IMG/VR virus record: IMGVR_UViG_3300043388_000012
Location: 18,210-82,209 of that record
From: a virus
Taxonomy: Duplodnaviria > Caudoviricetes
DNA length: 64,000 nucleotides
Strand: one strand, 5' to 3'
The first letter of the stretch is position 1; each line of letters begins with the position of its first letter. Positions 5,723 through 40,120 of this stretch are shown here, in pieces. The position numbers and the translations under genes were made by a program. The notes beneath the pieces are model-generated. The model did not search any database and was not told where the DNA came from. It saw nothing but the letters and a program-made list of their open reading frames with translations.

Positions 5723-5723
5723 A

Positions 5724-6109: not shown

Positions 6110-6168
6110 GACGACGATCGCAGCTACACGAGCTGTTCATTGTGCTCGTTGGCAAGCGAGGCTAACCG

Positions 6169-10730: not shown

Positions 10731-13516
10731 TGCGTTACCGAGTGAAATGGGCGGCGACGATCGCGGCATCCACGCTCGCAGCGTCAACGACGCTAGCTAG
10801 TCCGGGTCATGATGTTCTAGCCAGTGAGGCGGCGAGCGAGAATGTAACCTCGAGGATACAAAAACCGCGGCTCCGAGTGCGTATCGTTCCGCCTCCTGTG
10901 CGGCCGCAGGAGCCGAGCAAGGAACCGAAGCCCCCGTTGCGCCTTGAGACGCCTCCCGGGTTTCCTGAGCCAGCTCCGGAGCCGGATGACGTCGAAGACG
11001 ACGGGGCAACCGATCAAGAGATTCAGATGGCTCTGCTGCACAAGGCGGCGGAGGCGAAGGCCAAGTATCACGAGCTCTGCCGCAACGACATAGACGCCTT
11101 CTGTGAGTACGTACTGAAAGACGTCGACGGCAAGGCGATCGAGCAGAACGCCTTTCACGAGCAGCTTCAGCGCGATCTGACAGTACACAGGCAGATCGTT
11201 GTCATCAGCCATCCTGAGAGCGGGAAGGCGCTGACGCTCGATACAGAGATTCCGACGCCAGACGGCTGGCGGACGATGGGATCGCTGAAGTGCGGCGATC
11301 GTGTGTTCGGAGGCGATGGCAAGCCGTGCTTAGTTACGTTTGCGACGCCTGTGCAGCTGGGTCGACGCGTGTTCGAAGTTGAGTTCGAAGATGGCTCGAT
11401 TCTCAAGGCGGATGCCGATCATCAATGGCATGTTCGCAAGCGGCAGGCGTTCGGCACTCGAGTTGTCACAACGCTCGACATGCAGCGCAAGCTCACGGAG
11501 TCAGACGGTCATTTTGTGTGGTCGGTACCGTGCACTGGAGCAGTGCAGTATGAGCGACACAGGTTGCTTGTTGACCCGTATGTGTTGGGAGCATGGCTCG
11601 GCGACGGCACTGCGAGCGATGCTTCGTTGACGTTCGGCGAGGCGGATAGCTTCGTTTGGGAAGAGTGCGTTGCACGAGTCGGCGGCAGAGCTCCGCGCGT
11701 GGATAGGCACAACGGGCATGTGAAGACCGGGACTCTCGGGTCAGGGTGGGGAGCGATCCGCGGTAGGTTGCGTCGCTTGCGAGTGCTGGATGACAAGCAT
11801 ATCCCGACCAACTATCTGACGGCTTCTGTGTACGATCGACGGGAGCTGCTAGCCGGCCTGCTCGATACTGACGGGAGCGTGAGTCGAGCAGCCGGAGGAA
11901 GCTCACGAGTCGAGCTCACGCTCTGCAACGGCAGGCTCGCGAGTGACTCACTCGAGTTGATTCGGTCGCTGGGTTTCCGCGCAACGATGAAGGAGTCCGA
12001 CTCCTGTTTGAACGGGCGCGTAGTCGGTCGGCGTTGGCGGATCTGTTTCACAGCGCGTGAGCCGGTGTTCCGGTTGCCACGGAAGCTCGCGAAGCAGCAG
12101 CTAGGCGGCTCGACTCGTACGAGTTGGAAGCATGTCGTTGCGATTCGCGAGATCGAGTCGGTCCCGGTTCGCTGCATTGCGGTCGATAGTGAGAACCGAA
12201 CGTATCTCGCTGGCCGGGCGTACACGGTCACGCACAACACCTCTCAGATAGCCGTTGGGCGCGTGTTGTTTGAGCTAGGGCGCAACCCGAACTTGCGCGT
12301 GATGCTGCTCTACAACGCGGAAGAAGCCGCGGTCAACACGCTCTCGACGATCAAGAAGTACATCGAAGACAGCGAAGAGCTGCATGCGGTCTTCCCCAAT
12401 CTCAGACGCGGGCAGATTTGGAAAGATGACGCGATCGTTGTTCAGCGCTCTGCCTACGATCGTAACCCGTCGATCGTTGCAGTCGGTTACAACAGCCGAC
12501 GCATCGGCGGTTCGCGCGTCGACTTCCTAGTCATCGATGACTTGCTCGACCAGACAGTCACGGCGAGCGAGATACAGCGCCGCAAGCTGTCGAGCTGGGT
12601 AAAGAGCACGGTCCTAACGCGTATCACTGCGCACGCAATGATCGCGTTTCTCACGAACGCTTGGCATCCGCGCGACCTCGCACACGAGTCGGTCAAGGAT
12701 CGCGGCTGGCATCTCATCAAGCGGCCGATCCGTAATCCGGATGGCGCGATCTCCTGGCATCTGTGGACTGAAGAGCGGCTCAAGCTCAAGCGCAAGGATC
12801 TCGGAGCTCTCGAGTACGCACGTTCGTTCGAGTGCGATCCGCGCGATGACTCTTCGCGTGTGTTCCGGCCTGAACACGTCGAGTATGCGCAGAAGAAGCG
12901 CGGAGCCGGTTACGGCTTCTTGCACTCGCTCGATATCATGCCCGATCGCTCGCTCGTTGTGACCGGCATCGACTTGGCGGCTGGCGACGACACGAAGAAG
13001 ATCGGTGCTCGCACTGCGATCGTCAGCGTGTTCTTCCATCCCAATCAGGATCGGCAGGTCGTGCGCATCCGCTCCGGTCGTTGGCGCGCGCGGCAGATTT
13101 TGGATGAAGTTGCGGCGGTCGGTCATCTCTTCCCGCGCAACCATTGGATCGTGGTCGAGAACAACGGTGTTCAGCGCTGGATTCTCGACCTGGCTAACGA
13201 GCATGACATGGACGTCGGCGTTGCTCTCGTGCCGTTCCGTACAGGCCGCAACAAGAGTGATCCTCGCTTCGGCGTGGCATCGATGGCGGCCGAGTACGAG
13301 GCTCGCCGTTGGATTTTGCCGGATGCCTGCGAGACCGAAGACGAGCAGAACGAAGTCGAGAGCGTCGTATCGCAGATGATCGATTATGTGCCGGAAGCGC
13401 ATACGGGCGATGCGCTAATGGCGAAGTGGTTCGCGCGCGAAGTCGGCAGGAAGATCTTCATGCGGTTCTTCGGACCCGGAGCTACTGGCGGTTCCATCGT
13501 GCGCGCGATCGGGTAG
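10730..13516 (+). CDS. terL: Terminase large subunit containing an intein
   Basis: Walker A PESGK/TSQ split by the intein; Walker B FLVIDD; nuclease GIDLA, VENNG, HTGDALMA. Start uncertain (10730 or 11027). Confidence 0.93.
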   Translation: MRYRVKWAATIAASTLAASTTLASPGHDVLASEAASENVTSRIQKPRLRVRIVPPPVRPQEPSKEPKPPLRLETPPGFPEPAPEPDDVEDDGATDQEIQMALLHKAAEAKAKYHELCRNDIDAFCEYVLKDVDGKAIEQNAFHEQLQRDLTVHRQIVVISHPESGKALTLDTEIPTPDGWRTMGSLKCGDRVFGGDGKPCLVTFATPVQLGRRVFEVEFEDGSILKADADHQWHVRKRQAFGTRVVTTLDMQRKLTESDGHFVWSVPCTGAVQYERHRLLVDPYVLGAWLGDGTASDASLTFGEADSFVWEECVARVGGRAPRVDRHNGHVKTGTLGSGWGAIRGRLRRLRVLDDKHIPTNYLTASVYDRRELLAGLLDTDGSVSRAAGGSSRVELTLCNGRLASDSLELIRSLGFRATMKESDSCLNGRVVGRRWRICFTAREPVFRLPRKLAKQQLGGSTRTSWKHVVAIREIESVPVRCIAVDSENRTYLAGRAYTVTHNTSQIAVGRVLFELGRNPNLRVMLLYNAEEAAVNTLSTIKKYIEDSEELHAVFPNLRRGQIWKDDAIVVQRSAYDRNPSIVAVGYNSRRIGGSRVDFLVIDDLLDQTVTASEIQRRKLSSWVKSTVLTRITAHAMIAFLTNAWHPRDLAHESVKDRGWHLIKRPIRNPDGAISWHLWTEERLKLKRKDLGALEYARSFECDPRDDSSRVFRPEHVEYAQKKRGAGYGFLHSLDIMPDRSLVVTGIDLAAGDDTKKIGARTAIVSVFFHPNQDRQVVRIRSGRWRARQILDEVAAVGHLFPRNHWIVVENNGVQRWILDLANEHDMDVGVALVPFRTGRNKSDPRFGVASMAAEYEARRWILPDACETEDEQNEVESVVSQMIDYVPEAHTGDALMAKWFAREVGRKIFMRFFGPGATGGSIVRAIG
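10843..10860. repeat. Motif B copy 2 (TGTAACCTCGAGGATACA)
   Basis: Exact reverse complement of copy 1. Confidence 0.9.
11228..12238 (+). mobile_element. Class 3 intein with LAGLIDADG homing endonuclease (337 aa)
   Basis: Starts with Ala (ALTLDTEIPTP), block B ADHQW, block F VRCIAV, ends VTHN with +1 Thr; LGAWLGDG and LAGLLDTDG motifs. Confidence 0.93.
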
Positions 13517-19712: not shown

Positions 19713-20047
19713 TGACCAAGGAAGCGCAGCAAACCGACCCGCTCGACATGACGTTGCGCGAGCTTCTGGCGGCACTCGTTGATCGAGCAGGAGCCAGCGC
19801 GAACGATGAAGAATGGATCAACATCCGCGGAGAGGTTTACCCATGGCGGCGCATCATCGCAGCTGCGGAGCGCGGCGAGTGCGAGGTGAGCCGCGTCGGT
19901 CGGCGGTTGATGATGCGGCGTTCGGAGCTGAGCAAGTTCTTGGCTGCAAGGCGCATCGGTCCGAAGAAGGTTGAACCTAAGACCGATGCGCCTACGAGCG
20001 AGCTAGACAGGTCAGTGCAGCGAGCGCTTCGCCGTAACGGGCTCTAG
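19712..20047 (+). CDS. Excisionase-like winged-helix protein
   Basis: SRVGRRLMMRRSELSKFL wing motif; abuts the integrase 3' end. Confidence 0.6.
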   Translation: MTKEAQQTDPLDMTLRELLAALVDRAGASANDEEWINIRGEVYPWRRIIAAAERGECEVSRVGRRLMMRRSELSKFLAARRIGPKKVEPKTDAPTSELDRSVQRALRRNGL

Positions 20048-21351
20048 TGTTTCGAGAGCCGTGAGACGTTCATGGCGGCGAGCTCTGGGATCGCGAGAGA
20101 GATATCGGGGAACGGACCCGGGTTGAGCTGGAGGTCTTCGAGGCTCCGCGCCGCTCGGACGTAGCGATCCATGATCTCCTTCGTGATGTGACCGGTTCGA
20201 TCTGTGATCCATCCATCGCTTTTGCCAGCTCGCTTAGCCCAAGTGACGAAGGTCGCTCGCAGGTCGTGAAAGCGCAACGCTTGGATCTTGTCTGTGTTGC
20301 TGAAGAGTATCCCTCGAGTGACACCAGCGCAGAGCAGATCCTTGCGAAGGGTCTCGGCTTCGAAGCGGCGTCTGCAGTGCAGTGTGGAGATGACCGGCTT
20401 CGAGTCAGAGGGCCAGCCGCAGTATTCTCGCCATCTACGTAAGAGCTCGATGAGCGAACCGATTCCCGGTGACTCCGCGTCGCGTTGCACGAACATCACG
20501 GGATGATCGTTCTTGTTCACGAGACTCAGGATCGTTGAGTGGGTCAGGTCGATCGAGCTCCAGAGAAAGAACTCGATGCGGCTCTCTTCGTCGGCGGTAG
20601 CACGCGATCGGTTGCCGATTGGGATCGAGCCTTTGCGCAGACCCGTGTACGTAGCTAGCGCGTAGTACACGCGGCGTTCGATCGGGATGGCGATGCACAT
20701 CAAGAGAGCAAGGAGCTCGACCGGGTAAAGGTAGCTGTAGAGCTTTGACGGGCCTTTGCTCGGGAGCAGGTCATCGCTGACAGGGTTGTCTTCGCGAAGC
20801 CGACCGGGGCGGATGGCAAGGTCGAAGAGCCGATGCGTGACCATGTACACTTGCCGCTTCGTGCCTTGCTTCGGGTTCTTCTTGTATCGACGCTTGTAGG
20901 CGACCCATGCAGCTGCGAAGGCTCGCTCGACGTCCTGCTCAGTGACCGCGGAGACCGCCATGTCTCCGAGGTATGGGTACACGTGTTGTTCGAGGCGACG
21001 CACGTCATCTTCGGCAGACTTCTTGATCTTGAGTCGTTTCACTTCGCCGTATTTTTGATGCAGCTTGCCCGACGTCCATTCCTCTCCGAATGCTCTGACC
21101 TTCTTTTCAGCTCGGAGCCGTTCGGGCATCTCTGCTGCGGGGTTTCGAAATGCAGTCGAGAACTTTTTCGCCGCAGCTTGAGCGGCATCCTTGTCTGCTT
21201 CCTTGTTCGTGTAGAGAGGTCGACCATCGTCGGCAAGCATCTCTTCGCGGATGCGGCTTCCGCGAACGCTGATCTTCGCAACGTAGCGGCCGCCCTTCGT
21301 AGGCAACCACTCGGCAGAGCCTGTCGCTGGCTTGGTTTCGCTTGGTTTCAT
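20044..21351 (-). CDS. int: Tyrosine recombinase (phage integrase)
   Basis: TYTGLRKG (R), FHDLRATF (HxxR), GHITKEIMDRY (H, Y); next to attP. Confidence 0.95.
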   Translation of the reverse strand: MKPSETKPATGSAEWLPTKGGRYVAKISVRGSRIREEMLADDGRPLYTNKEADKDAAQAAAKKFSTAFRNPAAEMPERLRAEKKVRAFGEEWTSGKLHQKYGEVKRLKIKKSAEDDVRRLEQHVYPYLGDMAVSAVTEQDVERAFAAAWVAYKRRYKKNPKQGTKRQVYMVTHRLFDLAIRPGRLREDNPVSDDLLPSKGPSKLYSYLYPVELLALLMCIAIPIERRVYYALATYTGLRKGSIPIGNRSRATADEESRIEFFLWSSIDLTHSTILSLVNKNDHPVMFVQRDAESPGIGSLIELLRRWREYCGWPSDSKPVISTLHCRRRFEAETLRKDLLCAGVTRGILFSNTDKIQALRFHDLRATFVTWAKRAGKSDGWITDRTGHITKEIMDRYVRAARSLEDLQLNPGPFPDISLAIPELAAMNVSRLSKH

Positions 21352-21372
21352 GCGCTTTGCTGCTTCCCGTGG

Positions 21373-21420
21373 GGAGAATCGTCCAGACAGCTCGGAGAAT
21401 CGTCCATGCAACTGTCCAGA
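21373..21420 (+). repeat. Integrase arm-type sites, left
   Basis: GGAGAATCGTCCA at 21373 and 21394, plus degenerate ACTGTCCAGA at 21411. Confidence 0.75.
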
Positions 21421-28529: not shown

Positions 28530-28880
28530 ATGAACCGGACGGACGATCGAAGGTGGGGCAGAAGCAAGTTGCTGCGGCATGGGCATCTGCTCCGCGCGTT
28601 ACGTGAAGATGCCGGACTGTCTCAAGCGCGGCTCTGTCAGCGGATCGGAATGAGTCCAGCACAGCTCTCGGAAGTCGAGCGCGGGATACAACCGCTCTCC
28701 CTCCGACGTGCAAACCAGATCGCCAAGGTGCTCGGCAGTTCGTTCGCAGAAGTTGTGCAAGCTGTGCTTCAGGATCGCGTCGAAGATGCCGGGTTCAGCG
28801 AGCTGCAGGTGTCTGTCGTTCCGATCGCGGTTACGGCGACTGTCAACGGACATTCGCACGAAGCTGACAAGCTCCCATAG
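28530..28880 (+). CDS. XRE-family HTH regulator (candidate phage repressor)
   Basis: LRALREDAGLSQARLCQRIGMSPAQLSEVERG. Confidence 0.88.
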   Translation: MNRTDDRRWGRSKLLRHGHLLRALREDAGLSQARLCQRIGMSPAQLSEVERGIQPLSLRRANQIAKVLGSSFAEVVQAVLQDRVEDAGFSELQVSVVPIAVTATVNGHSHEADKLP

Positions 28881-28887: not shown

Positions 28888-28916
28888 TTGACAGGCTATC
28901 CCTAATGCGGGACGCT
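28888..28916 (+). promoter_or_regulatory. Promoter with degenerate motif-A operator
   Basis: TTGACA-17 nt-GACGCT, with TATCCCTAATGCGGGACG overlapping the spacer. Confidence 0.6.
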
Positions 28917-28926: not shown

Positions 28927-29826
28927 ATGGCGAAGTTGGCCCTAGCTCTGTTGATCGTGTGCTCTGGTGTCGGATGCATTGGCGCGGAGCCTGACTCGAT
29001 CGAGCAGGATGTAGGCGTCGGTACGTACGATCCGGAGCCGGCTCCCATACAGAGGGTCAGCAAGCCGGTCGCAGAAGCTCCCGAGCCATCGAAGCCGGTC
29101 GAGACTACCTCGCAGCCAGCCGTGCAGCCCCTACCTGCCGCGAAGCAAGCTCCGGTCAAGGCAGAGCCGGTCGCAGCTGCTCCGACCGCTGTAGAGCCTG
29201 CAGCTCAACCCGAGCAAGCCGCACAGCCTGAACCGGAGATCGCACAGGAGCCGACTCCGGCTCCCGAGATGACTCCCCCTGTCGTCGTGCCTGTTCCGGT
29301 TCAGGCTGCTCCCGAGCCAGCTCCGGTTACACCTGTCATCGTACCTGCTCCGGAAACGCCCGTCGTGCCTACTGTGTGTCAGCCGGATGTTTGCGAAGAC
29401 CCGTATCACTCATGCACTCCGCCGCAAACCGGAGCGCTCGACGAAGGTCACACCGATGCAGGTTCGTGGGCTCGTACGTACACGCTCCACTCCGTGACTG
29501 ACATGGATCTCATCTCGTTACCGTTCATGATGCGTAAGAGCTCGACGCTCACAGCGAAGATCGAGACTGACTTACCTCCGGGAGACGAGTACTTCCGTTG
29601 TGCTGGCGACTCGTACGATGACGGGCATACATGCGGAGCTGGCACAGGTTGGGTCCTGCACAAGGGATGCTTGATCATCGCCTCGGAGTTCACGGTTACC
29701 TGCCGCGTTACGCCTCCGGCTATCTCGTTCGGCATGCTTTACCTCCTGTTTCACCAGCCTCCGACCGATGGCGAGCTGAAGATCGCCAGCCGCTGCGAGT
29801 ACGATGTAGCCGTCAGTTGGCACTGA
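28927..29826 (+). CDS. Lipoprotein with Pro/Ala-rich stalk and Cys-rich C-terminal domain
   Basis: MAKLALALLIVCSGVGC signal/lipobox-like start; PEP/PVV-rich linker. Confidence 0.7.
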   Translation: MAKLALALLIVCSGVGCIGAEPDSIEQDVGVGTYDPEPAPIQRVSKPVAEAPEPSKPVETTSQPAVQPLPAAKQAPVKAEPVAAAPTAVEPAAQPEQAAQPEPEIAQEPTPAPEMTPPVVVPVPVQAAPEPAPVTPVIVPAPETPVVPTVCQPDVCEDPYHSCTPPQTGALDEGHTDAGSWARTYTLHSVTDMDLISLPFMMRKSSTLTAKIETDLPPGDEYFRCAGDSYDDGHTCGAGTGWVLHKGCLIIASEFTVTCRVTPPAISFGMLYLLFHQPPTDGELKIASRCEYDVAVSWH

Positions 29827-29842: not shown

Positions 29843-29871
29843 TTGCGCGTGAGTCCCGGATAGGGGACACT
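29843..29871 (+). promoter_or_regulatory. Promoter with motif-A operator
   Basis: TTGCGC-17 nt-GACACT; AGTCCCGGATAGGGGACA. Confidence 0.65.
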
Positions 29872-30897: not shown

Positions 30898-31602
30898 CTA
30901 AGCGCACAAAACGCTAGGCGGGCGTTTGCGTCGGCGCGTCGACTCGCAGAACTCGCACATCGTTTGGCGGCCAGTGCGGCGAACGAACGGATCGCCGCAG
31001 CGCTTGCAGTCCGGAGTCGCGATCGTGAGCTTCCCAATCCAACTAACGTCGCCTCCGTTGTTGTCTCTGAGCTTCGAGAGCGCGCTGTTCTCGATCTGTC
31101 TGACGCGCTCACGAGTGATCGACATGTACTCGCCGATCTCCTCGAGGGTCATCCCGCATGGATGCTTGCGCACAGCATCTTTCGCAGCTGTATGGTTATC
31201 CCACTCGAGATCCGCCCATGGGTCTGGTATGTGCGCAGGGGCTCGACCTCTCCGCTTCGGCGCAATCGGCGGCGGAGGCGGTTGGCGTACTCGGAGCCGC
31301 GGTAACGTCGGCTGCGGCGAGATGAAGGCAGGCATGATCTGCCGCACTCGGAGCCGAGGAACCGCGGGAGGCGTTGGAGGTATCTGGCGAACTCTCAGGC
31401 GAGGCGATGCGACTGAAAAGGGAATCATCGCGACCGGAGGCGGTTGACGATTCTGGAGGCCTGAGAGAGCTGCTATCGGGGTTGTTGATCGAATTCTGTA
31501 CCGCACCAGGGAGTTTTGCATCTGCCCTGCATGTAGGTGGCTAGTCACCACAAAACACTGAAGGTCGAATTCGGTTTTTGACGAACTCTTGACGTTGAGC
31601 AA
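30898..31602 (-). CDS. Sigma70 region-4 domain protein with C-terminal Zn finger
   Basis: MTLEEIGEYMSITRERVRQIENSALSKLR; CKRC...CEFC. True start uncertain and probably shorter. Confidence 0.8.
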   Translation of the reverse strand: MLNVKSSSKTEFDLQCFVVTSHLHAGQMQNSLVRYRIRSTTPIAALSGLQNRQPPPVAMIPFSVASPRLRVRQIPPTPPAVPRLRVRQIMPAFISPQPTLPRLRVRQPPPPPIAPKRRGRAPAHIPDPWADLEWDNHTAAKDAVRKHPCGMTLEEIGEYMSITRERVRQIENSALSKLRDNNGGDVSWIGKLTIATPDCKRCGDPFVRRTGRQTMCEFCESTRRRKRPPSVLCA

Positions 31603-31607: not shown

Positions 31608-31636
31608 TTGACGTGAAGTCCCGGATGCGGGACACT
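31608..31636 (+). promoter_or_regulatory. Promoter with motif-A operator
   Basis: TTGACG-17 nt-GACACT; AGTCCCGGATGCGGGACA. Confidence 0.75.
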
Positions 31637-31643
31637 CAAGGAG

Positions 31644-31949
31644 TTGAAAGGGATGGTCACTGTGAAGAAAATGCTGAAGTTGCGCGCGATTCAAACGCTG
31701 CACGGTAACGAGGCGGCGACTCAGGAGATTCTGCGAGCTCTCAAGCTCTCACAAGGCAACATGCGCGATGCGTGTGCGGCGTTGGGTATCGGGAAATCTT
31801 CGATGTATCGCTTGATCGAAGACCTGAACGCACAAGCTGCGATCGACAAGCTCGTTGCCTCCCTCGGCGTGAAGATTCAGGGCAAGGAGTTGTCTGCCGC
31901 CGCAGCTCCGGTCAAGGGCCCGAAGCCGCGCGTGAAGAAGGTCGCATGA
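31644..31949 (+). CDS. Fis-type (HTH_8) DNA-binding protein
   Basis: ILRALKLSQGNMRDACAALGIGKSSMYRLI. Confidence 0.8.
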   Translation: MKGMVTVKKMLKLRAIQTLHGNEAATQEILRALKLSQGNMRDACAALGIGKSSMYRLIEDLNAQAAIDKLVASLGVKIQGKELSAAAAPVKGPKPRVKKVA

Positions 31950-32299
31950 TGCTCGACGTCAGCGCGTTGCTCGAAGCTGGCTATCGTCCGCACAAGTGTG
32001 ACAACCCGGTAGCTGACAACACGGTTTATCAAAAGGTGATCCGAAGCGGGGGAGAGAAGCTCTACTTCGTCAATGTCACCTTTTGGTATTTCGATAAGCA
32101 CTTTCCGGATAGAGGCGCGCAGACTAGCGCGAGTTGTGAAGCCCGGCTCTACCTGCCCGAAGCTAATCCGCTTGTAGGGTCTGCAGGCTTCACGCTCGCA
32201 CTGCATCTTGAGATGACCGCGACAGTCGCTGAAATCGAGGCGTTTTACGCTACTGCGTACAAGGCGATGCAGTGCGTGCCTGACCTGCACAACAACTAG
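31946..32299 (+). CDS. Hypothetical protein
   Basis: ATGA overlap; followed by a terminator. Confidence 0.65.
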   Translation: MMLDVSALLEAGYRPHKCDNPVADNTVYQKVIRSGGEKLYFVNVTFWYFDKHFPDRGAQTSASCEARLYLPEANPLVGSAGFTLALHLEMTATVAEIEAFYATAYKAMQCVPDLHNN

Positions 32300-32316: not shown

Positions 32317-32348
32317 AAGCCTGCGAGCACTTGTCTCGCAGGCTTTTT
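32317..32348 (+). terminator. Rho-independent terminator, probably bidirectional
   Basis: AAGCCTGCGAG-7 nt-CTCGCAGGCTT followed by a T run; sits between convergent genes. Confidence 0.85.
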
Positions 32349-32585: not shown

Positions 32586-32996
32586 CTAGCCAGAGCTGGG
32601 TAAGGAGGCATTCATGCAGTCTTCGCAGAACTCCGGATGACGCATCGTTCGGCGCGCACTCCGAAGCGAGCTCTCTCCGAGAATCGTTGCGTGAGCCGAG
32701 CACACAACTGCGTAGCGGGCTCCGCAGTCGATGCCCTGCTCCGATGCCACGTAGACAACGATCCGGGAGCCTGAAGCCGCGTAGACAGCTTCTGCGATGT
32801 GCCCTGCTTCCCTGCGCGCGGGAAACCTCCGGGCAATATGCCGCTCGCAGAGGTAACGGACTTCGCCAGTGAAGCCGCACACTCGGCAGTAGCGGCCTAG
32901 ATCGACACAAGCCTTCGCAGAGTGGTCGGGAGCCGCGCAGTGCTCGCAGGCATCGCACACGGCTTGCACGATCCGGAGCTCGTTACGTTTGCCCAT
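32586..32996 (-). CDS. Cassette L8: Cys/His-rich protein (leaderless)
   Basis: ATG 6 nt after -10 CACACT; CDACEHC, CRVCG, CAHC-like and CEDC clusters. Confidence 0.75.
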   Translation of the reverse strand: MGKRNELRIVQAVCDACEHCAAPDHSAKACVDLGRYCRVCGFTGEVRYLCERHIARRFPARREAGHIAEAVYAASGSRIVVYVASEQGIDCGARYAVVCSAHATILGESSLRSARRTMRHPEFCEDCMNASLPSSG

Positions 32997-33109
32997 GATC
33001 AGAGTGTGCCGGATACGGGACACAAAAGCAAGTCGACCCGAGCCATTTTCTGACTCCAGGTCGACTTGCTTTGGGAGGCGGCATCCTACCGCCTCTGCTG
33101 CCCTGCTCT

Positions 33110-33316
33110 TCAGTGAGCGGCTAGCTCCCGATACAGCGCGTTCGTGCGCTCGCTCGCATCGGCAAAGCTCTGCAGGGTGCGAGTGCTCTTACTCACATCG
33201 TGCCGCTCGCTTGCGGCGTGTTCCGCCTTGAGAGCGATCGCGATATCCGCGCGGATTGCGTCGGCGGAGCGCTTGGGTTGCTTCTTCGTGGTCCGGCTTT
33301 GTTTCGTCTTCGGCAT
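33110..33316 (-). CDS. Cassette L7: small basic protein (leaderless)
   Basis: ATG 6 nt after -10 TACTCT. Confidence 0.75.
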   Translation of the reverse strand: MPKTKQSRTTKKQPKRSADAIRADIAIALKAEHAASERHDVSKSTRTLQSFADASERTNALYRELAAH

Positions 33317-33381
33317 GTGTTTAGAGTACCGGATGCGGGACAGAATGCAAACCGACTCACGTCGATTTTGGCGCCAGTATC

Positions 33382-33624
33382 CTACACCCCTAGTTCGCGG
33401 CGAGCAGCTGCGATGGCGAGCTCCGCCGCTTCTTGCGTAGTGAAGTAGGCGATGTTCGAACCCCCGTCGACGTTCCGCACTGGCCAGCCGAGGATATCCG
33501 CCATCATCGCGACTGCGATGCGCGGGAAAGCAGCCTTCAAGCCGCGGTTCTTCGCGTAGTCTGCCGCATACGTCAGCACGGCTTGTGCCGCTGTCTTGTC
33601 GGCGGCGGTTGTCTTCTTGGCCAT
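33382..33624 (-). CDS. Cassette L6: hypothetical protein (leaderless)
   Basis: ATG 6 nt after -10 CACACT. Confidence 0.75.
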   Translation of the reverse strand: MAKKTTAADKTAAQAVLTYAADYAKNRGLKAAFPRIAVAMMADILGWPVRNVDGGSNIAYFTTQEAAELAIAAARRELGV

Positions 33625-33700
33625 GATCAGAGTGTGCCGGATGCGGGACAGATATGCAATCCGATTGGAGGCGGCAAAGATGCCGCCTCCGGGGGAGCTC

Positions 33701-34006
33701 TCAGACTGCGAAGGCGGCCGCAATGACAGGAGCGCACAGCCGGGCATATTCATCGCGCGCAGCGCTCCGGTTGCCTACCAAAACACCGTTCACTTCGATT
33801 TGATCCCAAGCGCGGACATCGTTTGAGTCATACGAGGCGACTTTCATCGACACACATACTTCGATGCCGTTCGGGATCGAGAGGCAGAATGCTTTGATGT
33901 GCGTGTTCGCCATGATCTCGCCGCAGTGGTAGGCGAAGGTCGAGAGCACGTGCTCTTGAATCTGTTGTTTTGAGGTAGTAGCAACTTTGGGGGACTTCTT
34001 GCTCAT
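33701..34006 (-). CDS. Cassette L5: hypothetical protein (leaderless)
   Basis: ATG 6 nt after -10 CACCAT; downstream hairpin at 33667-33691. Confidence 0.75.
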   Translation of the reverse strand: MSKKSPKVATTSKQQIQEHVLSTFAYHCGEIMANTHIKAFCLSIPNGIEVCVSMKVASYDSNDVRAWDQIEVNGVLVGNRSAARDEYARLCAPVIAAAFAV

Positions 34007-34081
34007 GTCTTTATGGTGCCGGATGCGGGACAGATACGCAAGCTGATTTGAGGCGGCAGGAAGCCGCCTCCGGGGAGAGCT

Positions 34082-34390
34082 TCAGCGCGGCTTGAGCGCC
34101 ATATGCGGTTCGACAACGTAGTCGAAGCACTCGGATGCTTTGCCGATGATGCGCCCAACCTGTTTCCAGGACTTGGCTTGACGCACATTGCAGTCACGGT
34201 CGATGAACGCGCGCACGCCGTTCTTAGGGCAGGAGATGCGGGCATACTTGGGCCCGATAGTCGCCTCGAAGTCGCGATAGAGCGGGACCTTGCCATCACA
34301 CTCGATGAGCTTGACGCGTACATTGCAGGCTTCGATGAAGGCTGCGACGAAGCCCGAGAAACTGTCAGCGGCTGAGTTGCTGTTGTCCAT
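34082..34390 (-). CDS. Cassette L4: hypothetical phage protein (leaderless)
   Basis: GPKYARI...VRAFID...KSWK resembles a widespread small phage family; hairpin at 34051-34071. Confidence 0.75.
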   Translation of the reverse strand: MDNSNSAADSFSGFVAAFIEACNVRVKLIECDGKVPLYRDFEATIGPKYARISCPKNGVRAFIDRDCNVRQAKSWKQVGRIIGKASECFDYVVEPHMALKPR

Positions 34391-34481
34391 GTCTAAACAG
34401 TACCGGATGCGGGACAGATAAGCTAGGCGGTTCGAGACGATTTTGGAGGCGGCGTCCTACACACACGCCTCCGGGGGAGCT

Positions 34482-34730
34482 TCAGTGCGTGAAGCCTTCC
34501 CAGCTGCAAGCCGGTTTGCTGGCGTCCTTCCGGAAGCCAATGGCTCCGAGTTGCTCACACTGAATCCAGCCGGAGAGGGAGAGGTTTTGCCGCAAGCCGC
34601 AGCCACATTTTGGGCAAACACCAGAGGCAACGACTGCTCGCGTCTCCGCTTGTTGGGCTGCGATCCGAGCATCGCTCGCAGCGCGCTCCGCCTTGCGTGC
34701 CGATCGTTCCGTTTTGCTCATGCGTGCCAT
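34482..34730 (-). CDS. Cassette L3: Zn-ribbon protein (leadered, GGAG RBS)
   Basis: CPKCG...C...C; hairpin at 34446-34471. Confidence 0.75.
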   Translation of the reverse strand: MARMSKTERSARKAERAASDARIAAQQAETRAVVASGVCPKCGCGLRQNLSLSGWIQCEQLGAIGFRKDASKPACSWEGFTH

Positions 34731-34804
34731 GCGTTTACTCCGAGGTGCGTTGCGTTGCTGACAGTTGATAGAGTTCCGGATACGGGACAGATACGCAAGC
34801 CGAT

Positions 34805-34951
34805 TCAGGTCGACTTTTTGGCGGCGCATTGCGCGCGGTTGATCTGCTCCCAAAGTGCTTCGAGAGCGAGCGTCAGAGCTTTGGCTTCGTCCGTATCTCC
34901 CATGCGGGAGAGCTTGGCTTCGATGATGTGAACCGCGGTGATTTTTTCCAT
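34805..34951 (-). CDS. Cassette L2: 48-aa protein (leaderless; below the ORF-track cutoff)
   Basis: MEKITAVHIIEAKLSRMGDTDEAKALTLALEALWEQINRAQCAAKKST; ATG 6 nt after TACTGT. Confidence 0.7.
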   Translation of the reverse strand: MEKITAVHIIEAKLSRMGDTDEAKALTLALEALWEQINRAQCAAKKST

Positions 34952-35030
34952 GTCCAAACAGTACCGGATGCGGGACAGATAAGCAAGCCGAGTTCAAGGG
35001 GGAGATACCCTCCCCCTTGGTAGGCAAGTC

Positions 35031-35333
35031 TTAGAACTTACCGACGTTGCGGCGGATTTCCGCAACGATGGTGATTTGGATGCCGCATGCGGCGGCCCAT
35101 TCGAGCCAGCCTTCGCGCAAGCGCTCGATCGCGTACTCCTCGGACTTGTGTCCGTTGATGCAGTCAACCGCGGCAGGTCGACCGCGGCCTTTGATCGTTT
35201 CCGCCCATTTTACGAGCGAGACCGAGTCTTTCGACCCTTTGATCGAGATGCCGACAATGGAGTTGCCCGGAGTGAAGAAAGACGTGCCAGTGATGATTTG
35301 GAGTTGCGCGATGCTGTTGTTGTTCGTGGTCAT
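35031..35333 (-). CDS. Cassette L1: hypothetical protein (leadered)
   Basis: GGAG RBS; hairpin near 34998-35018. Confidence 0.7.
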   Translation of the reverse strand: MTTNNNSIAQLQIITGTSFFTPGNSIVGISIKGSKDSVSLVKWAETIKGRGRPAAVDCINGHKSEEYAIERLREGWLEWAAACGIQITIVAEIRRNVGKF

Positions 35334-35480
35334 GTTGTTCGGCTCCGGGTTGTTGCGTTGACTTGGTAAACGTGGCCCGCATCCGGGACAGATGCAAACC
35401 GAATCGAGCCGATTTTGCGGGCGATGTAGGCAAGCCGATTTCGGGTTGCACGTGTCCCGCATCCGGGATAGGTTAGACGT

Positions 35481-35936
35481 ATGGACAACGGCAACGACAA
35501 ACCAACGATTCAGAGCTTCGGCGTGCTGGCTGGCGCGTACCTGAACCACGCGAAAGACACTGCGTTTCTCACGCATGCGTGCGAGGTCGACTCGAACGGC
35601 TATCCGGTCAAGGTCCTCTGCAACCGAGTGAAGGCAGAGCACATCTGTCCGGATGGCTACTCGGACGAAGAGTTAGCGGGCCCTGCTACCTGCCCTGCCT
35701 GTGCGAAGAAGGACCCTCGGCATCTCACACGAGAGCGCAAGGAGGCGTTGATCTGGCGACATACGTCGAAGGATTACCGCGGAGTCGTTGGCGGCGCGAA
35801 GACGATCCTTGTGCTCCGGTTGGGCGGAACTACGCTCGTACCGCTCTCCGGTCTCACGGATGCGGAGCTAGCGAGCGAGCTCAAGAGCGCGCAGCACGCC
35901 GAAGCCAAGCGGCTGGCGAAGAAGACGGCGAAGTGA
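35481..35936 (+). CDS. Cassette R1a: two-domain Zn-binding protein (leaderless)
   Basis: HAC...C...CPAC; ATG 6 nt after TAGGTT. Confidence 0.75.
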   Translation: MDNGNDKPTIQSFGVLAGAYLNHAKDTAFLTHACEVDSNGYPVKVLCNRVKAEHICPDGYSDEELAGPATCPACAKKDPRHLTRERKEALIWRHTSKDYRGVVGGAKTILVLRLGGTTLVPLSGLTDAELASELKSAQHAEAKRLAKKTAK

Positions 35937-36163
35937 TGGATGCGATCACATGGACGCTACAGGCAGGTACTCCGCACTACGCGTCTAGCTGCGGCCGCTA
36001 CGTTGCTCTGTATGTGCGCACGAGCCGGACAGGCTTCGCGATCTACCGAGTGTTCCGGGCAAGCCTGCCGTATGCACAGCGGAAAGAACGCAACGCGCTC
36101 TCGGTCGGCGGCTTGCCAGCTCTCGCCTATTGGGAGCGCAAGGAGCTCCCAGAAGGAATGTAA
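35936..36163 (+). CDS. Cassette R1b: hypothetical protein
   Basis: TGATG coupling to R1a. Confidence 0.6.
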   Translation: MDAITWTLQAGTPHYASSCGRYVALYVRTSRTGFAIYRVFRASLPYAQRKERNALSVGGLPALAYWERKELPEGM

Positions 36164-36176
36164 CCTCGAGGATACA
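36159..36176. repeat. Motif B copy 4
   Basis: TGTAACCTCGAGGATACA overlapping the R1b stop codon. Confidence 0.9.
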
Positions 36177-36283
36177 CGGAGGCGTGTAGGATGCCGCCTC
36201 CAAAATCGGTGCGAGTCGAGTTGCATCCATCCCGCATCCGGGACACATTGAGATTGTCAGCAGCAACCGAAGGACGAACGAAG

Positions 36284-36517
36284 ATGACCGCGAACACTTG
36301 GTACACGATGAGCTTCCGCGATGGTGTGGTCGTCTACTTCCTCCCGAACGGCGAGATTCAAAAGAACAGCAAGCGAGTTGGCTTGCTCGTGACAGTCGAT
36401 ACCACGCGACCGCGCGCCAAGCCGAGCTCCAAGAAGTCCGCTGTTCATCCTCTCGAGTTCAGCGGCTGGAAGGTCGCAGAGATTGTGCCTGCCGCCGTCG
36501 CACTTCTCGGGATGTGA
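36284..36517 (+). CDS. Cassette R2: hypothetical protein (leadered)
   Basis: Promoter TTGCAT-17-CACATT; AAGGA RBS. Confidence 0.7.
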   Translation: MTANTWYTMSFRDGVVVYFLPNGEIQKNSKRVGLLVTVDTTRPRAKPSSKKSAVHPLEFSGWKVAEIVPAAVALLGM

Positions 36518-36653
36518 GCAACACCTACACGGGAAATCGGATCGGGACGGAGCGTATGACACCTAACCTCGAAGCTCGTGCGGTTGCGGAGGCTTGCGAG
36601 CAATCGGTCTAGACCGGCTTGCACATCTGTCCCGCATCCGGCACAGTAACGGT

Positions 36654-36896
36654 ATGAACACGGCAACGAAAACGGCTCTCCAGACCAACGCAACGCGGAT
36701 CGCGACCTGGATGGCGGCCGCCGACGAGGATGGCGATGGCTCGCCGATTCAAGGGATGGCTGCGAAAGTCTCCGAGCTGGCGCAAACCCTGCTCGCGATT
36801 CGCGATACCGCATGGTCGCGCACTCTCCTGACAGTGCTCCCGATGCACCTGCGAGACCGCGTGATCGCGGCAGGCCGCCAGCTGAAAGCAGCCTAG
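36654..36896 (+). CDS. Cassette R3: hypothetical protein (leaderless)
   Basis: ATG 6 nt after CACAGT. Confidence 0.75.
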   Translation: MNTATKTALQTNATRIATWMAAADEDGDGSPIQGMAAKVSELAQTLLAIRDTAWSRTLLTVLPMHLRDRVIAAGRQLKAA

Positions 36897-37018
36897 GGGG
36901 AAGGAGCTAGGGAGCCTCGAACGGGCTCCCGGAGGCACTACGGAGCCGGAATAGCCCGGCTCCCGAGCTCTGGAGCTGAAGCGGATCGGATCGGCCCCGA
37001 TCGATGGTAGGATAGGGT

Positions 37019-37228
37019 ATGCGAACAAAGTCAAAAGTGAGTGCGAAACAGCAAGCAGCTCGGGAGCTTCTTGCGGCAGAGCTTCCGCCTGTGTCGGACA
37101 AAATCATGCTCCGTGAGTTTCTGCGGCTGAAGGGGCTAACACGCGACGATCTCGCTACGTCTGACGTCGATGACTTGCAGCGCCTACAAGCCTACTTTCA
37201 GGCAGTTGAGCGGATTTTCCACGTGTAG
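37019..37228 (+). CDS. Operator-less cassette: 69-aa protein
   Basis: Preceded by GGATCGGATCGG and TAGGAT-5 nt-ATG but no motif A. Confidence 0.6.
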   Translation: MRTKSKVSAKQQAARELLAAELPPVSDKIMLREFLRLKGLTRDDLATSDVDDLQRLQAYFQAVERIFHV

Positions 37229-37295
37229 GCATCGAGCGCTAAAAATCGGAGCCGATCGTGTTGCATGTCTCCCGTATCCGGGACACAATCTCTCT

Positions 37296-37625
37296 ATGGC
37301 AACCGAACACACCGTAGCACTGACGATTCTCGCGCAACTCGGCAACCGCTGCATGCAGATGATCGGCGCGAAGAACATCCTGACCTCCGAGAACGCGCTC
37401 ACCTTCAAGATTGGGCGCAACGCTAAGAGCGTGTCGCACATCCGCATCTCCCTTGATGCTGATGACACCTACACGATCGAAGCTCTCCGAGTGCGGAAGC
37501 AGAACGGTGTGCCGAAGTGCACGACGGTCGAGATTAGCTCGTGTGTGTACGTTGACCGGATGCACAAGACGATCGAGCGCTTCACGGGCATGTATACGAG
37601 CCTCGGCACGATGGGCGCGAAGTAG
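37296..37625 (+). CDS. Cassette R4: conserved phage protein (leaderless)
   Basis: VALTILAQLG...MIGAKN...LTFKI...ISLDADDTYTIE pattern; ATG 6 nt after CACAAT. Confidence 0.8.
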   Translation: MATEHTVALTILAQLGNRCMQMIGAKNILTSENALTFKIGRNAKSVSHIRISLDADDTYTIEALRVRKQNGVPKCTTVEISSCVYVDRMHKTIERFTGMYTSLGTMGAK

Positions 37626-37637
37626 GCGGTTGCCGAA

Positions 37638-37694
37638 GCGGGAGGTATATATACCTCCCGCACATCGGCGTTTCACCTACAGGTATATATACCT
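37638..37694. repeat. Perfect 24-bp palindrome plus a second 14-bp core copy
   Basis: GCGGGAGGTATATATACCTCCCGC (37638-37661) and AGGTATATATACCT (37681-37694). Confidence 0.9.
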
Positions 37695-37752
37695 CTCCCG
37701 GAACTTCAGAGATCGGCTTGCGTGTGTACCGGATGCGGGACACAATCTGATC

Positions 37753-38124
37753 ATGAGCAACGCGGTCAAGTTCCTCGGTACCTCGGATGAAGTCACAACC
37801 TGTGACTGCTGCGGCAAGGCGAATCTCAAGAGCACGGTCGCTCTGTCCATCGATGAAGCCGAGCCTGTGCATTTCGGCGTTACCTGTGCGGCGCGCGCGT
37901 TGAAGACTGGCGTAAACGAGGTCAAGCGCGGCACTGCTGCAGCCGACCGGGAGCGCGCAGAAGCGGAGCGCAAAGCACGCGCCGAAGCGGAGCGAGTTGC
38001 TTCGGCTCCTTGGTACGCCTTCCTTGCGGCTCACGGCATGGGCGACAACAACTTCAGCCGCATCGAGTCACTTGGCGGCTACAAGGCGGCGCGCGCGCGG
38101 TTCGAGGCGGAGCAGGGCAAGTAG
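37753..38124 (+). CDS. Cassette R5: Zn-ribbon protein (leaderless)
   Basis: CDCCGK.NLK.TV...HFG.TCA; ATG 6 nt after CACAAT. Confidence 0.8.
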   Translation: MSNAVKFLGTSDEVTTCDCCGKANLKSTVALSIDEAEPVHFGVTCAARALKTGVNEVKRGTAAADRERAEAERKARAEAERVASAPWYAFLAAHGMGDNNFSRIESLGGYKAARARFEAEQGK

Positions 38125-38190
38125 GATACCGGCTCCAGAATCGGATCGGGGCGGCTTGCGATAGTCCCGCATCCGGGACACTATGACTGC

Positions 38191-38439
38191 ATGGACACAG
38201 CAAACACGGCGGAACGGTTGGCGGCGAAACTGACTCAGGAACTGAATCGGATCGTGGGCGACCGGGGCAAGGTTATCCACGTTGTCACCGAAGGTCTCGG
38301 GCATGGCTGGTGTGTGGTCTTCGACACGGAACATGCCGCGCTCAAGGCGTACCACACCTACAGGTACTCGAAGGGTATTACCTTCGGCGAGTCGAAGAAC
38401 CTGAACGGCTGGTATATCTCGACTGAACCCACGGTGTAG
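38191..38439 (+). CDS. Cassette R6: hypothetical protein (leaderless)
   Basis: ATG 6 nt after CACTAT. Confidence 0.75.
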   Translation: MDTANTAERLAAKLTQELNRIVGDRGKVIHVVTEGLGHGWCVVFDTEHAALKAYHTYRYSKGITFGESKNLNGWYISTEPTV

Positions 38440-38494
38440 GCACAATCGGATCGGGGCCCTTGCATGGGTCCCGCATCCGGGACACAATCTATTC

Positions 38495-38764
38495 ATGCAA
38501 TCGAATCAAGCAACGCAGACGAAGACGAAGAAGCCGAGCAAAACTGCCATGAAGTTCCTCGGCCTTGCCGCCAAGGTCAACAGCTGGTCGCACAAGCTCG
38601 AAGGTACGCACATCGCCAACATGAAAGATTGGTGGATTGAGCTTGAAGCCGCGGGTTACTGCGAGATCACGCACACGGTAGGTGCGATGTGGTGCAAGAT
38701 TACGCCTGCCGGTCGCATCGCACTCGACGCGCACATCGCATCGGGCGGTAAGGTAGCGCGCTGA
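38495..38764 (+). CDS. Cassette R7: winged-helix-like protein (leaderless)
   Basis: ELEAAGY...ITPAGR wing-like motif; ATG 6 nt after CACAAT. Confidence 0.7.
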   Translation: MQSNQATQTKTKKPSKTAMKFLGLAAKVNSWSHKLEGTHIANMKDWWIELEAAGYCEITHTVGAMWCKITPAGRIALDAHIASGGKVAR

Positions 38765-38857
38765 AATCCTAAGGGATGACGGGGGGAGCAGGACGGCTCC
38801 CCCAGAATCGGCATTGCTCGGCTTGCATATCTGTCCCCCATGCGGGATAGTTACTGC

Positions 38858-39283
38858 ATGGACAGCAACGCAGTACTGGTTGATGTGACTCGGTTCATGT
38901 ACGCGGGAAACGCGAGTTTCACCGTAGTTTCCAACGCGACGGGCGTGCGCTTCACGTTCAAGGTTCGCGCCAAGGAAGTCGAAGGCGGCGCCACGCTTCA
39001 CTTTGTGTCGGTCCTGACAGGCTCCGATAACGAGAGCGATTACACGTTCCTCGGAACCATCTTCAACCGCACGAGCTTCCGGCATGGCGCGCGATCGAGC
39101 ATCGGAGTGGCAGCGCCATCGGCGAAGGCCTTTGCATGGTTCTTCCGCAATGTTGCAGGCGGTAAGCTGCAAGGCGCGACAGTGCATCACGAAGGCCGCT
39201 GCGGCCGCTGCGGCCGGAAGCTGACGGTTCCTGAGTCGATCCTGACCGGGCTAGGGCCCGAGTGCGCTGGTAAGGCGGCCTGA
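38858..39283 (+). CDS. Cassette R8: DUF6011-like protein (leaderless)
   Basis: C-terminal CGRCGRKLTVPESILTGLGPECA; ATG 6 nt after GATAGT; hairpin near 39298-39321. Confidence 0.8.
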   Translation: MDSNAVLVDVTRFMYAGNASFTVVSNATGVRFTFKVRAKEVEGGATLHFVSVLTGSDNESDYTFLGTIFNRTSFRHGARSSIGVAAPSAKAFAWFFRNVAGGKLQGATVHHEGRCGRCGRKLTVPESILTGLGPECAGKAA

Positions 39284-39412: not shown

Positions 39413-40120
39413 GTGGAGACAGCAACCCGATCGAAGCCGAAGCCGCGCACGAGACTGAAGCAGAGCTCGCCAAAATCGAGACCGCCGATCGAGCTGAAGT
39501 CGAGACCGCCGAAGCAGGCGAAGTCGAGACCGCCAAAAGCCGATCGGAGTGTATCCTCGAGGTTACACGTGCAGATGGTTCCGCTGAGTCAGCTCCTAGA
39601 GTGGCCAGGAAACCCTAAAGAGCACGACTTGGAGACTCTGGGGGAGAGTTTCGAGAGGTTCGGCTACGTCGAGCCTATCGTGTATGACGAAGGCAGTAAG
39701 CGGATCGTTGCTGGCCACGGTAGGCGCGAAAAGTTGCTGGCATGGAAGCAGAGCGGGAAAGCTCCCCCTGCTCGTGTCGTTGTGCGTAATGGCGAGTGGT
39801 ATGTGCCTGTGCTGCGCGGAGTCTCGTTTCCAAACGCACACGAAGCCGAAGCGTACCTACTCACCAGCAACCAAGGTGTGATCCGAGGGGGGTACAACGC
39901 AACCGCGCTCGCAGAGATGCTCTCCAGACATGTGGATGATTCGAACGGTATCGGTTGGAGCTCCGACGAGATCAGCGACCTGATAGGCAAAGCGCAGAAG
40001 GCCGCTCAAACGTCTTACAACGAGTCGATCGCTCCGGATGAACCGGAAGCATACGAGCAACCGAAGCCCGTTACGCATACCTGTCAGAACTGCGGAGCGA
40101 CGGTTGCCTGCAATCAATAG
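39413..40120 (+). CDS. ParB/Srx N-terminal-domain protein with C-terminal Zn ribbon
   Basis: WPGNPKEH...FGYVEPIVYD...IVAGHGR; HTCQNCG. Start may be 39569/39575. Confidence 0.8.
   Translation: METATRSKPKPRTRLKQSSPKSRPPIELKSRPPKQAKSRPPKADRSVSSRLHVQMVPLSQLLEWPGNPKEHDLETLGESFERFGYVEPIVYDEGSKRIVAGHGRREKLLAWKQSGKAPPARVVVRNGEWYVPVLRGVSFPNAHEAEAYLLTSNQGVIRGGYNATALAEMLSRHVDDSNGIGWSSDEISDLIGKAQKAAQTSYNESIAPDEPEAYEQPKPVTHTCQNCGATVACNQ
39476..39534 (+). repeat. TCGAGACCGCC x3 at 24-bp period
   Basis: Copies start at 39476, 39500 and 39524. Confidence 0.85.
39550..39567. repeat. Motif B copy 5
   Basis: TGTATCCTCGAGGTTACA immediately before GTG 39569. Confidence 0.9.

Follow-up and report, generated by a model that had tools for sequence, protein, structure and literature searches.

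How does a tailed phage keep a long run of small genes under common control when each gene carries a promoter of its own? The question is raised by positions 32586–39283 of a 64,000-nucleotide stretch of phage DNA, hereafter the window, which comprises bases 18210–82209 of an 82,209-bp IMG/VR virus record (IMGVR_UViG_3300043388_000012, rated ∼75% complete) and derives from an uncultivated tailed phage of 80–110 kb (G000 in comparisons with its relatives). Two rows of promoter–gene units, eight leftward (L1–L8) and eight rightward (R1–R8), diverge at 35333–35481 (∼35.4 kb), and the promoter spacer of every one of the 16 carries the palindrome TGTCCCG-N4-CGGGACA. The original prediction described these units as self-contained, each with this palindrome in its promoter spacer, and their arrangement as one that could not be recognized. 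The units and their palindromes are borne out; the novelty is not, since the promoter-plus-stem-loop (PeSL) cassettes of T4-type phages, stem-loops in the spacer included, are already known. The array is a real variant of such cassettes and no new kind of system. The best explanation, which is considered somewhat probable, is a hyperplastic block of autonomous PeSL-type early cassettes with a spacer operator that would be read by a dimeric phage repressor.

The palindrome occurs 18 times in the window at no more than two mismatches, compared with an expectation of 0.25, and none of 100 shuffles reached this number. Array copies lie at 33005, 33325, 33633, 34015, 34399, 34772, 34960 and 35373 in the leftward row and at 35453, 36228, 36628, 37268, 37725, 38163, 38467 and 38832 in the rightward row. 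The motif had been described as a feature of the array units; full copies are also present outside the array at 29852 and 31617, both rightward, and weak copies at 1957, 27170 and 28897, while none was found in the first 18 kb of the record. When each copy is oriented by its gene before alignment, all 18 full copies sit in the spacer between a -35 and a -10 box, at a distance from the -35 box of 1 nt (for the most part in rightward units) or 3 nt (for the most part in leftward units), and span about -28 to -9 relative to the predicted start. Four of the 18 are inverted with respect to the promoter, with the centre reading GATG or GATA in place of CATC, and the central AT is invariant across copies.

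The -35 box ahead of the palindrome is TTGCNN, the exceptions being TTGACG at 31617 and TAGCTT in L4. In 18/18 copies there follows, 17 nt after the -35 box (16 nt in L7), a hexamer whose second base is A and whose sixth is T, and the T of this -10 box moves with the register of the -35 box and not with the palindrome. A search pattern blind to the palindrome (TTGC, 17-nt spacer, NANNNT, 6 nt, ATG) gives 11 matches versus 0.27 expected, all of them in the array; two further units fit it with one change, the 16-nt spacer of L7 and the TAGCTT box of L4. Of the 16 array units, 13 have an ATG 6 nt (once 5 nt) past the -10 box. ATG is the start codon in all of these tight units and none is preceded by a Shine–Dalgarno sequence, whereas GGAG or AGGA precedes the start in all five leadered units (34772, 35373 and 36228 in the array, together with the promoters at 29852 and 31617). 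Because the ATG follows the -10 box so closely and a Shine–Dalgarno sequence is absent, the 13 units are predicted to give leaderless mRNAs; the either/or pattern of leader and Shine–Dalgarno sequence, together with starts that are ATG without exception, would be expected of true leaderless genes. The leaderless starts originally proposed for the array are therefore kept as a prediction for these 13 units, and given up for the three (34772, 35373 and 36228) that have a leader with GGAG or AGGA.

An inverted repeat in a promoter spacer may act as a hairpin or as a protein-binding site. Over the 18 aligned copies there are no compensatory pair changes, every departure from the palindrome breaking the pairing, and nine copies have an uncompensated mid-stem mismatch (the eight class-II copies, which are those in the 3-nt register, and R5). 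The class-II copies tested fold at about -3 kcal/mol, compared with -10.3 kcal/mol for perfect copies. Since the class-II mismatch falls on the first base of the -10 hexamer, which it changes from G to C, T or A, this position is set by the promoter and the change is tolerated by the site; orthologous sites in two close relatives, L286 and L287, likewise differ at this mid-arm position. A separate, strong GC hairpin (-20 to -25 kcal/mol) stands behind ∼11 of 17 ORFs, and GC hairpins also precede promoters. Those that follow a stop codon often share the stem GGAGGCGGC. The GC hairpin that had been noted as often present in a unit is thus confirmed, with the qualification that no T-run follows any cassette hairpin or palindrome; an A-rich AATCG stretch follows the hairpins instead. 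A canonical intrinsic terminator with an 11-bp stem and a T-run does occur at 32317–32345, where it ends the regulator operon to the left of the array. A search of Rfam gave no match above noise. The lack of compensatory changes, the weak fold of the class-II copies, the invariant AT and the missing T-run lead us to read the palindrome as the binding site of a dimeric protein rather than as a hairpin. It is further read as a repressor site because it spans about -28 to -9 in two registers, and two helical registers favour occlusion of the promoter over face-specific activation.

The core promoter recurs in relatives with another palindrome. Portal and sheath searches identified a family of uncultivated phages of 90–137 kb, the closest complete members of which are G001 (109.5 kb) and G002 (110.3 kb), with portals 67 and 64% identical to that of the window. 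Both have arrays on the same leaderless core promoter as the window, and in both the array palindrome is TTGAAA-N13-TTTCAA, which straddles the -35 box. This palindrome has eight copies in G001, six of them pointing left and two right in a divergent layout like that of the window, and at least 16 in G002; it has no copy in the window. Its left arm is matched by an A-rich AATCG element that often lies upstream of the -35 box in the window and may be a relic of that arm or an UP-like element. TGTCCCG-type promoters are also found in G001 and G002, where they number 4–6, are often leaderless and are orthologous to the non-array sites of the window; the 29852 site has conserved orthologs in L286, L287 and G001. 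Given its two registers, its inverted copies and the use of a different palindrome on the same core promoter in relatives, the TGTCCCG palindrome is a module separate from the core promoter. In the simplest history, a few regulatory promoters would have carried the TGTCCCG operator ancestrally, and it would have spread across the array in the lineage leading to the window. A simple heteroimmune operator swap was considered and rejected, since a TGTCCCG-type site is also present in G001 and G002 and the helix of the Fis-type regulator described below is identical in all three phages. A search for similar arrays on the basis of the motif had been proposed: a 14-nt motif scan of viral contigs returned only single, chance-level matches, a longer -35-plus-palindrome pattern gave no further arrays, and no over-represented promoter word was found in four more distant family members (G003, G005, G007 and G009). 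In G002 (L176), positions 600–6400 hold at least 13 same-strand leaderless cassettes, each behind a shared hairpin, many of which begin ATGGAC and have a poor -35 box, TAGCGC.

The repeats also mark the points at which gene content changes between close relatives. L287 and L286 keep TGTCCCG sites and have regulators 94 and 85% identical to those of the window. In blastn comparisons of the window with L286 and L287, collinearity stops at the L8 and L7 promoters. L287 aligns collinearly with the window (89% identity) as far as the L8 promoter, past which matches are confined to promoter repeats of 40–76 bp and the neighbouring genes bear no relation to each other. L286 retains the L8 promoter and all of the L7 unit at 94% (the L7 ortholog is 96% identical), while the coding part of L8 is replaced, so that the L8 promoter is conserved in both relatives. 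The contig that carries P0004 (111 kb; regulator 77% identical) has, from the regulator to the portal gene, four small genes leftward and ∼12 rightward. Genes are thus replaced exactly at the repeats, and these alignments show that cassettes are exchanged between related phages at ∼40–70 bp of repeated control DNA.

PeSL elements number ∼50 motifs per T4-type genome and combine a strong sigma70-like promoter with an AT-rich upstream stretch and a stem-loop that often lies in the spacer separating the -35 box from the -10 box; they sit upstream of ORFans and mediate their shuffling (PMC2839356). Their cassettes are found in hyperplastic regions of the T4-type phages RB49 and phi1, where the element carries a Shine–Dalgarno sequence and start codon at its 3' end and cassettes can be excised as mini-circles (PMC2839356; PMC4122927). 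The window shares the repeated sigma70-type promoter immediately upstream of small ORFans, with many units in a row and one ORFan in each; the A/T-rich stretch upstream of the promoters; the inverted repeat in every spacer, although half of the copies fold weakly; and the insertion, deletion and replacement of genes between close relatives within bounds set by the repeats. The parallel drawn in the original prediction thus holds for promoter, inverted repeat, ORFans and repeat-bounded exchange. The window differs in that 13 of its 16 units have neither a Shine–Dalgarno sequence nor a leader and in that its rows diverge from a single point. Its inverted repeat is also conserved in sequence, carries uncompensated mismatches and marks regulatory promoters outside the array, and for these reasons looks like an operator. 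In addition, the phage is not T4-type and has recombinase genes; a search of the window sheath against 50,697 phage records found no T4-type phage, the best matches (<30% identity) being Bacillus and Streptomyces phages.

The divergence point was described as lacking a repressor gene, and there is indeed no ORF in 35334–35480. Candidate regulators are nevertheless present in the region, as three helix–turn–helix (HTH) genes lie 0.6–4 kb to the left of the array: an XRE-type gene (28530–28880, plus strand), a look-alike of sigma region 4.2 with a C-terminal Cys cluster (30898–31341, minus strand) and a Fis/NtrC-type gene encoding 98 residues (31653–31949, plus strand). The product of the last is the likeliest candidate for the operator binder, with a chance put at about even. 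It is the first gene of a regulator operon (31608–32299, plus strand; ORFs 31653–31949 and 31947–32299) with a -35 box TTGACG, a perfect-arm palindrome at 31617–31634 and a Shine–Dalgarno leader, so that the operator stands in its own promoter. Fifteen homologs, the most distant at 57% identity, show no change in the helix GKSSMYRLI. In 10/10 related contigs with readable upstream DNA, the start of the gene is preceded at 30–45 nt by TCCCG-N4-CGGGA or a similar sequence, the centre of which varies; the same contigs hold further full copies elsewhere. Nine of the 15 homologs have a precomputed match to Pfam HTH_8 (PF02954), against which the window protein scores 19.1 bits, under the 22-bit cut-off. 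The best fold matches are the dimeric DNA-binding domains of NtrC4 and NtrC1 (r.m.s.d. 1.2–1.4 Å), but with E > 1 they are not significant. Other non-array copies lie at 29852–29869, in a plus-strand promoter (29843–29869; -35 box TTGCGC) ahead of a leadered small-gene operon, and, in weak form, at 28897–28914 (plus strand), within the TTGACA promoter of ORF 28927–29826 and directly behind the XRE-type gene.

The sigma region-4 look-alike is predicted to read -35-type hexamers and not the palindrome. Its residues 64–94 nearly copy region 4.2 of the primary sigma factor, the helix that reads the -35 box; it is conserved at 68–74% identity in G001 and G002, and a Sigma70_r4 gene is divergent from the Fis-type gene in six of eight related contigs for which gene tables were read. 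The record encodes no sigma region 2. A possible role of the look-alike is to compete with sigma region 4 or to serve as its decoy. A basic motif, PRLRV(K/R), occurs three times at ∼31230–31400 (minus strand), upstream of or in the N-terminal part of its frame, and a related tail, P-x-x-R-V-K-K-V-A, forms the conserved C-terminus of the Fis-type regulator (31920–31949, plus strand) in the 15 homologs. The same pairing of the basic motif is seen in G001, and the two proteins may share a docking peptide.

Under the explanation considered best, host RNA polymerase would, on entry or induction, fire ∼20 similar promoters of the primary-sigma type at once, with transcription beginning at or beside the ATG. 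Leaderless monocistronic mRNAs for ∼18 small proteins would result and the regulator operon would be transcribed as well. The Fis-type regulator would then accumulate, occupy the spacer operators including its own and block RNA polymerase, turning down the whole ORFan set together in a Cro-like feedback on its own and ∼20 other promoters. Alternatively, the Fis-type protein itself would hold the set silent in a lysogen, or a maintenance repressor would do so in a prophage. The simultaneous expression with one off switch of the original prediction is kept as a proposal at this level. A wider interpretation, which is possible and is advanced only tentatively, is that the leaderless core promoter serves as a socket for different palindromic operators, giving a one-switch regulon for accessory genes that could be rewired. 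The operator of the autoregulated, Cro-like Fis-type protein would then have spread from a few regulatory promoters to the ORFan arsenal, reaching ∼20 sites, in G000 and its closest kin, sister phages would have wired the same kind of array to the palindrome straddling the -35 box, and the free-standing copy of sigma region 4.2 would act on the -35 box that all of them share.

Several observations weigh against repression of PeSL-type cassettes by the Fis-type protein. Many of the repeats are related by duplication, which means that the 18 copies do not count as independent observations. The array hexamers lie below E. coli consensus thresholds; a generic scan for promoters and terminators flagged neither the cassette promoters nor the array hairpins, its silence on the promoters following from these sub-threshold hexamers. 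The structural model of the Fis-type protein is of mediocre quality (pLDDT 65), with E > 1 for its fold matches. The XRE-type gene and the sigma region-4 look-alike are equally syntenic in relatives, and with all three HTH genes syntenic the assignment of the binder is correlative. Finally, the spacer stem-loop of PeSL elements has been interpreted as an attenuator and not as an operator (PMC2839356).

Other explanations were weighed. The palindrome could be the operator of a lysogeny-maintenance repressor, for which the XRE-type protein (28530–28880) is the candidate, and would then silence the array in the prophage and confer superinfection immunity. In its favour are the genes for a tyrosine integrase-like protein and a serine recombinase, the synteny of the XRE gene in relatives, with a weak palindrome directly behind it, the occurrence of sheath relatives within megabase-sized Myxococcota contigs and the different palindrome in the arrays of relatives, as in heteroimmune phages; the multi-site repressor systems of temperate actinophages work likewise. 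This explanation is nonetheless unlikely, as G000 and G001 have similar XRE recognition helices in spite of their different array palindromes, the TGTCCCG-type site is not lineage-specific, being found in all three phages, no palindrome lies upstream of the XRE gene itself and L286 keeps the sites though its XRE gene appears to be truncated. A structural stem-loop of the classical PeSL kind without a dedicated binder, acting as an attenuator or terminator of transcripts that enter from the cassette upstream, or as a hot spot of recombination, would account for the stable fold of the perfect copies, for the six cassettes that have no other hairpin behind the ORF and for the breaks of synteny at the repeats. 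It is quite unlikely in view of the uncompensated mismatch in half of the copies, the weak class-II forms, the lack of a T-run after the palindrome and the separate strong GC hairpin of most units; moreover, it is the sequence and not only the pairing that is kept at non-array promoters and across phages at 50–60% protein identity.

Hexamers that are weak by E. coli standards, the adjoining and conserved free-standing copy of region 4.2 and the poor TAGCGC box at many G002 array promoters would suit a palindrome that serves as an activator site or determinant of promoter specificity, with the sigma region-4 look-alike redirecting host RNA polymerase. Two registers 2 bp apart and both orientations are, however, unfavourable for face-specific activation, the spacer is already at the optimal 17 nt, unlike that of MerR-type promoters, and the record offers no sigma region 2, making this possibility very unlikely. 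It is extremely improbable that the repeats are not promoters at all and merely punctuate two long operons transcribed from the centre. Repeats related by duplication can mimic a conserved geometry, but the T of the -10 box shifts with the -35 box and not with the palindrome, the same geometry recurs with other sequences in G001 and G002, and the 13 genes that lack a Shine–Dalgarno sequence would be untranslatable from a long transcript unless re-initiated, whereas the leadered units possess one.

Other phages provide partial parallels. The stoperators of cluster A mycobacteriophages (L5, Bxb1 and TipsytheTRex) are asymmetric, orientation-dependent sites of 13–14 bp that are bound by a monomer, lie mostly inside transcription units and stop elongation (PMC9283540; PMC6550527). 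The window would resemble them in the scheme of one phage protein acting at 20–30 near-identical early-region sites for genome-wide silencing, with a spelling that differs between relatives; it differs in that its site is palindromic, inverted in four of 18 copies and always in a promoter spacer. Phage lambda has two promoters, PL and PR, with tripartite operators and with the repressor genes at the divergence point, and its cI mRNA from PRM is also leaderless. Divergent early transcription and a dimeric HTH protein at palindromes overlapping promoters would be common to both, and the proposed feedback follows the logic of Cro. The window, in contrast, has ∼20 single operators, one per gene, and its regulators are 0.6–4 kb away; with one operator per promoter and no ORF at the divergence point, its layout is not that of a lambdoid immunity region. 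In the host-takeover module of SPO1 many small early genes are served by several host-type promoters and terminators, and the promoters are not known to carry a common operator. The repressor operator of the Streptomyces phage phiC31, a conserved inverted repeat, occurs ∼18 times in intergenic early DNA and is not known to lie inside promoter spacers.

The leftward units (minus strand) are described here from the divergence point outwards, with leaderless starts as predicted above. L1 (35031–35397) has an inverted palindrome at 35373–35390, a leader with GGAG and an ORF of 100 residues (35031–35333), and L2 (34805–34986; promoter 34949–34986) has a leaderless ORF of 48 residues (34805–34951). 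L3 (34482–34798; palindrome 34772–34789) encodes a zinc-ribbon-like protein of 82 residues (34482–34730) behind a ∼35-nt leader with GGAG. The next five units are leaderless: L4 (34082–34425; palindrome 34399–34416; -35 box TAGCTT; ORF 34082–34390, 102 residues), L5 (33701–34041; promoter 34004–34041; ORF 33701–34006, 101 residues), L6 (33382–33659; promoter 33622–33659; ORF 33382–33624, 80 residues), L7 (33110–33350; palindrome 33325–33342; 16-nt spacer; ORF 33110–33316, 68 residues) and L8 (32586–33031; promoter 32994–33031; palindrome 33005–33022), the ATG of which, at 32996, opens an ORF for a Cys-rich protein of 136 residues (32586–32996).

On the plus strand, where leaderless starts are likewise predictions, R1 (35446–36163; promoter 35446–35483) has a leaderless ORF of 151 residues (R1a; 35481–35936) and an overlapping one of 75 residues (R1b; 35936–36163). 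R2 (36221–36517; palindrome 36228–36245) has a leader with AGGA and an ORF of 77 residues (36284–36517). R3 (36619–36896; promoter 36619–36656; leaderless ORF 36654–36896, 80 residues) is followed by two strong hairpins. The remaining units, all leaderless, are R4 (37261–37625; promoter 37261–37298; ORF 37296–37625, 109 residues, phrog_9437), R5 (37718–38124; promoter 37718–37755 with an inverted palindrome; ORF 37753–38124, 123 residues), R6 (38156–38439; promoter 38156–38193; ORF 38191–38439, 82 residues) and R7 (38460–38764; promoter 38460–38497; ORF 38495–38764, 89 residues), the last two with a perfect palindrome, and R8 (38823–39283; promoter 38823–38860; ORF 38858–39283, 141 residues, DUF6011, phrog_20259). 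Between R3 and R4 lies Rx (37019–37228, plus strand), an ORF of 69 residues which is classed from its sequence as a degenerate or different cassette because it has neither the palindrome nor a TTGC -35 box, TAGGAT standing 5 nt before its ATG. The ORF sizes of the units, 48–151 residues, are as originally given; the rule of one ORF per unit, with one unit having two, is right as regards R1 and has to be amended for Rx, which lacks a palindrome promoter and brings the total to 18 ORFs.

The cassette ORFs look real: GC3 > GC1 > GC2 holds in 17 of the 18, as in the portal and sheath genes, the exception being Rx. Seven units have homologs in G001 or G002, including those of L1 in G001, of L3 in a rightward cassette of G001 (62% identical), of R1 in both and of L4 and R3 in G002; the G002 homologs of R3, L4, R4 and R1a lie behind the other type of palindrome. 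Only R4 and R8 belong to a Pfam or PHROGs family, the other 16 proteins having none in these databases; homologs of R4 and R8 come mostly from phages of Alphaproteobacteria, with no function known for any of them. Several cassette proteins are Cys-rich or zinc-ribbon-like. Atlas look-ups of R1a and L1 gave nothing usable, and the L1 protein was not found in the more distant relatives.

The array is flanked on one side by a block of small regulatory genes and on the other by the structural genes, in a window with a GC content of 57–60% throughout and in which no tRNA genes were found. Recognizable genes in the window encode a serine recombinase (2031–2774), a tyrosine integrase-like protein (20044–21411, minus strand), a ParB-like protein (39413–40120), the portal (40489), a MuF-like head protein and the tail sheath (58135). 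A terminase-like ORF of 935 residues (10709–13516, plus strand) matches large terminase families in two separate stretches, and since these are split by matches to Hom_end and LAGLIDADG_3 (residues 365–439), an intein or homing endonuclease insert is suggested. A second quasi-palindrome of 18 bp, TGTAWCCTCGAGGWTACA, is present in seven copies of alternating orientation at 2794, 10843, 27108, 36159, 39550, 45114 and 62971, of which that at 36159 overlaps the stop codon of R1b within the array. It is not tied to the -35/-10 geometry, and its perfect form occurs in ∼14 copies across the G001 genome; its role could be that of a parS-like site, read by the ParB-like protein, or of a control site of late genes.

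A search with an alignment of 13 sheaths found 141 relatives in bacterial assemblies, overwhelmingly of Myxococcota and including Myxococcus and Citreicoccus isolates and contigs of several megabases; a portal query against bacterial genomes found no relatives. A host among the Myxococcota or another soil bacterium is plausible, as is a temperate lifestyle, for which the tyrosine and serine recombinase genes and the sheath relatives within megabase-sized bacterial contigs argue. Both are kept at this level because the bacterial sheaths are only 39–58% identical to that of the window and the two best matches are short contigs in unrelated bins. The myxophages Mx1 and Mx4 were rejected as relatives on the basis of size and the sheath search.

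No new class of system is opened. If the explanation considered best is true, modular cassettes of the PeSL type would extend beyond the T4-like phages with two added features of design, namely leaderless expression and an operator at each promoter that is tied to an identifiable small regulator. The array would then be a compact model of how ∼18 early proteins can be co-regulated and quickly exchanged, and, with its relatives, would supply natural pairs of promoter–operator modules with different specificity on one core promoter. The cassette proteins themselves are candidates for roles in host takeover or anti-defence.

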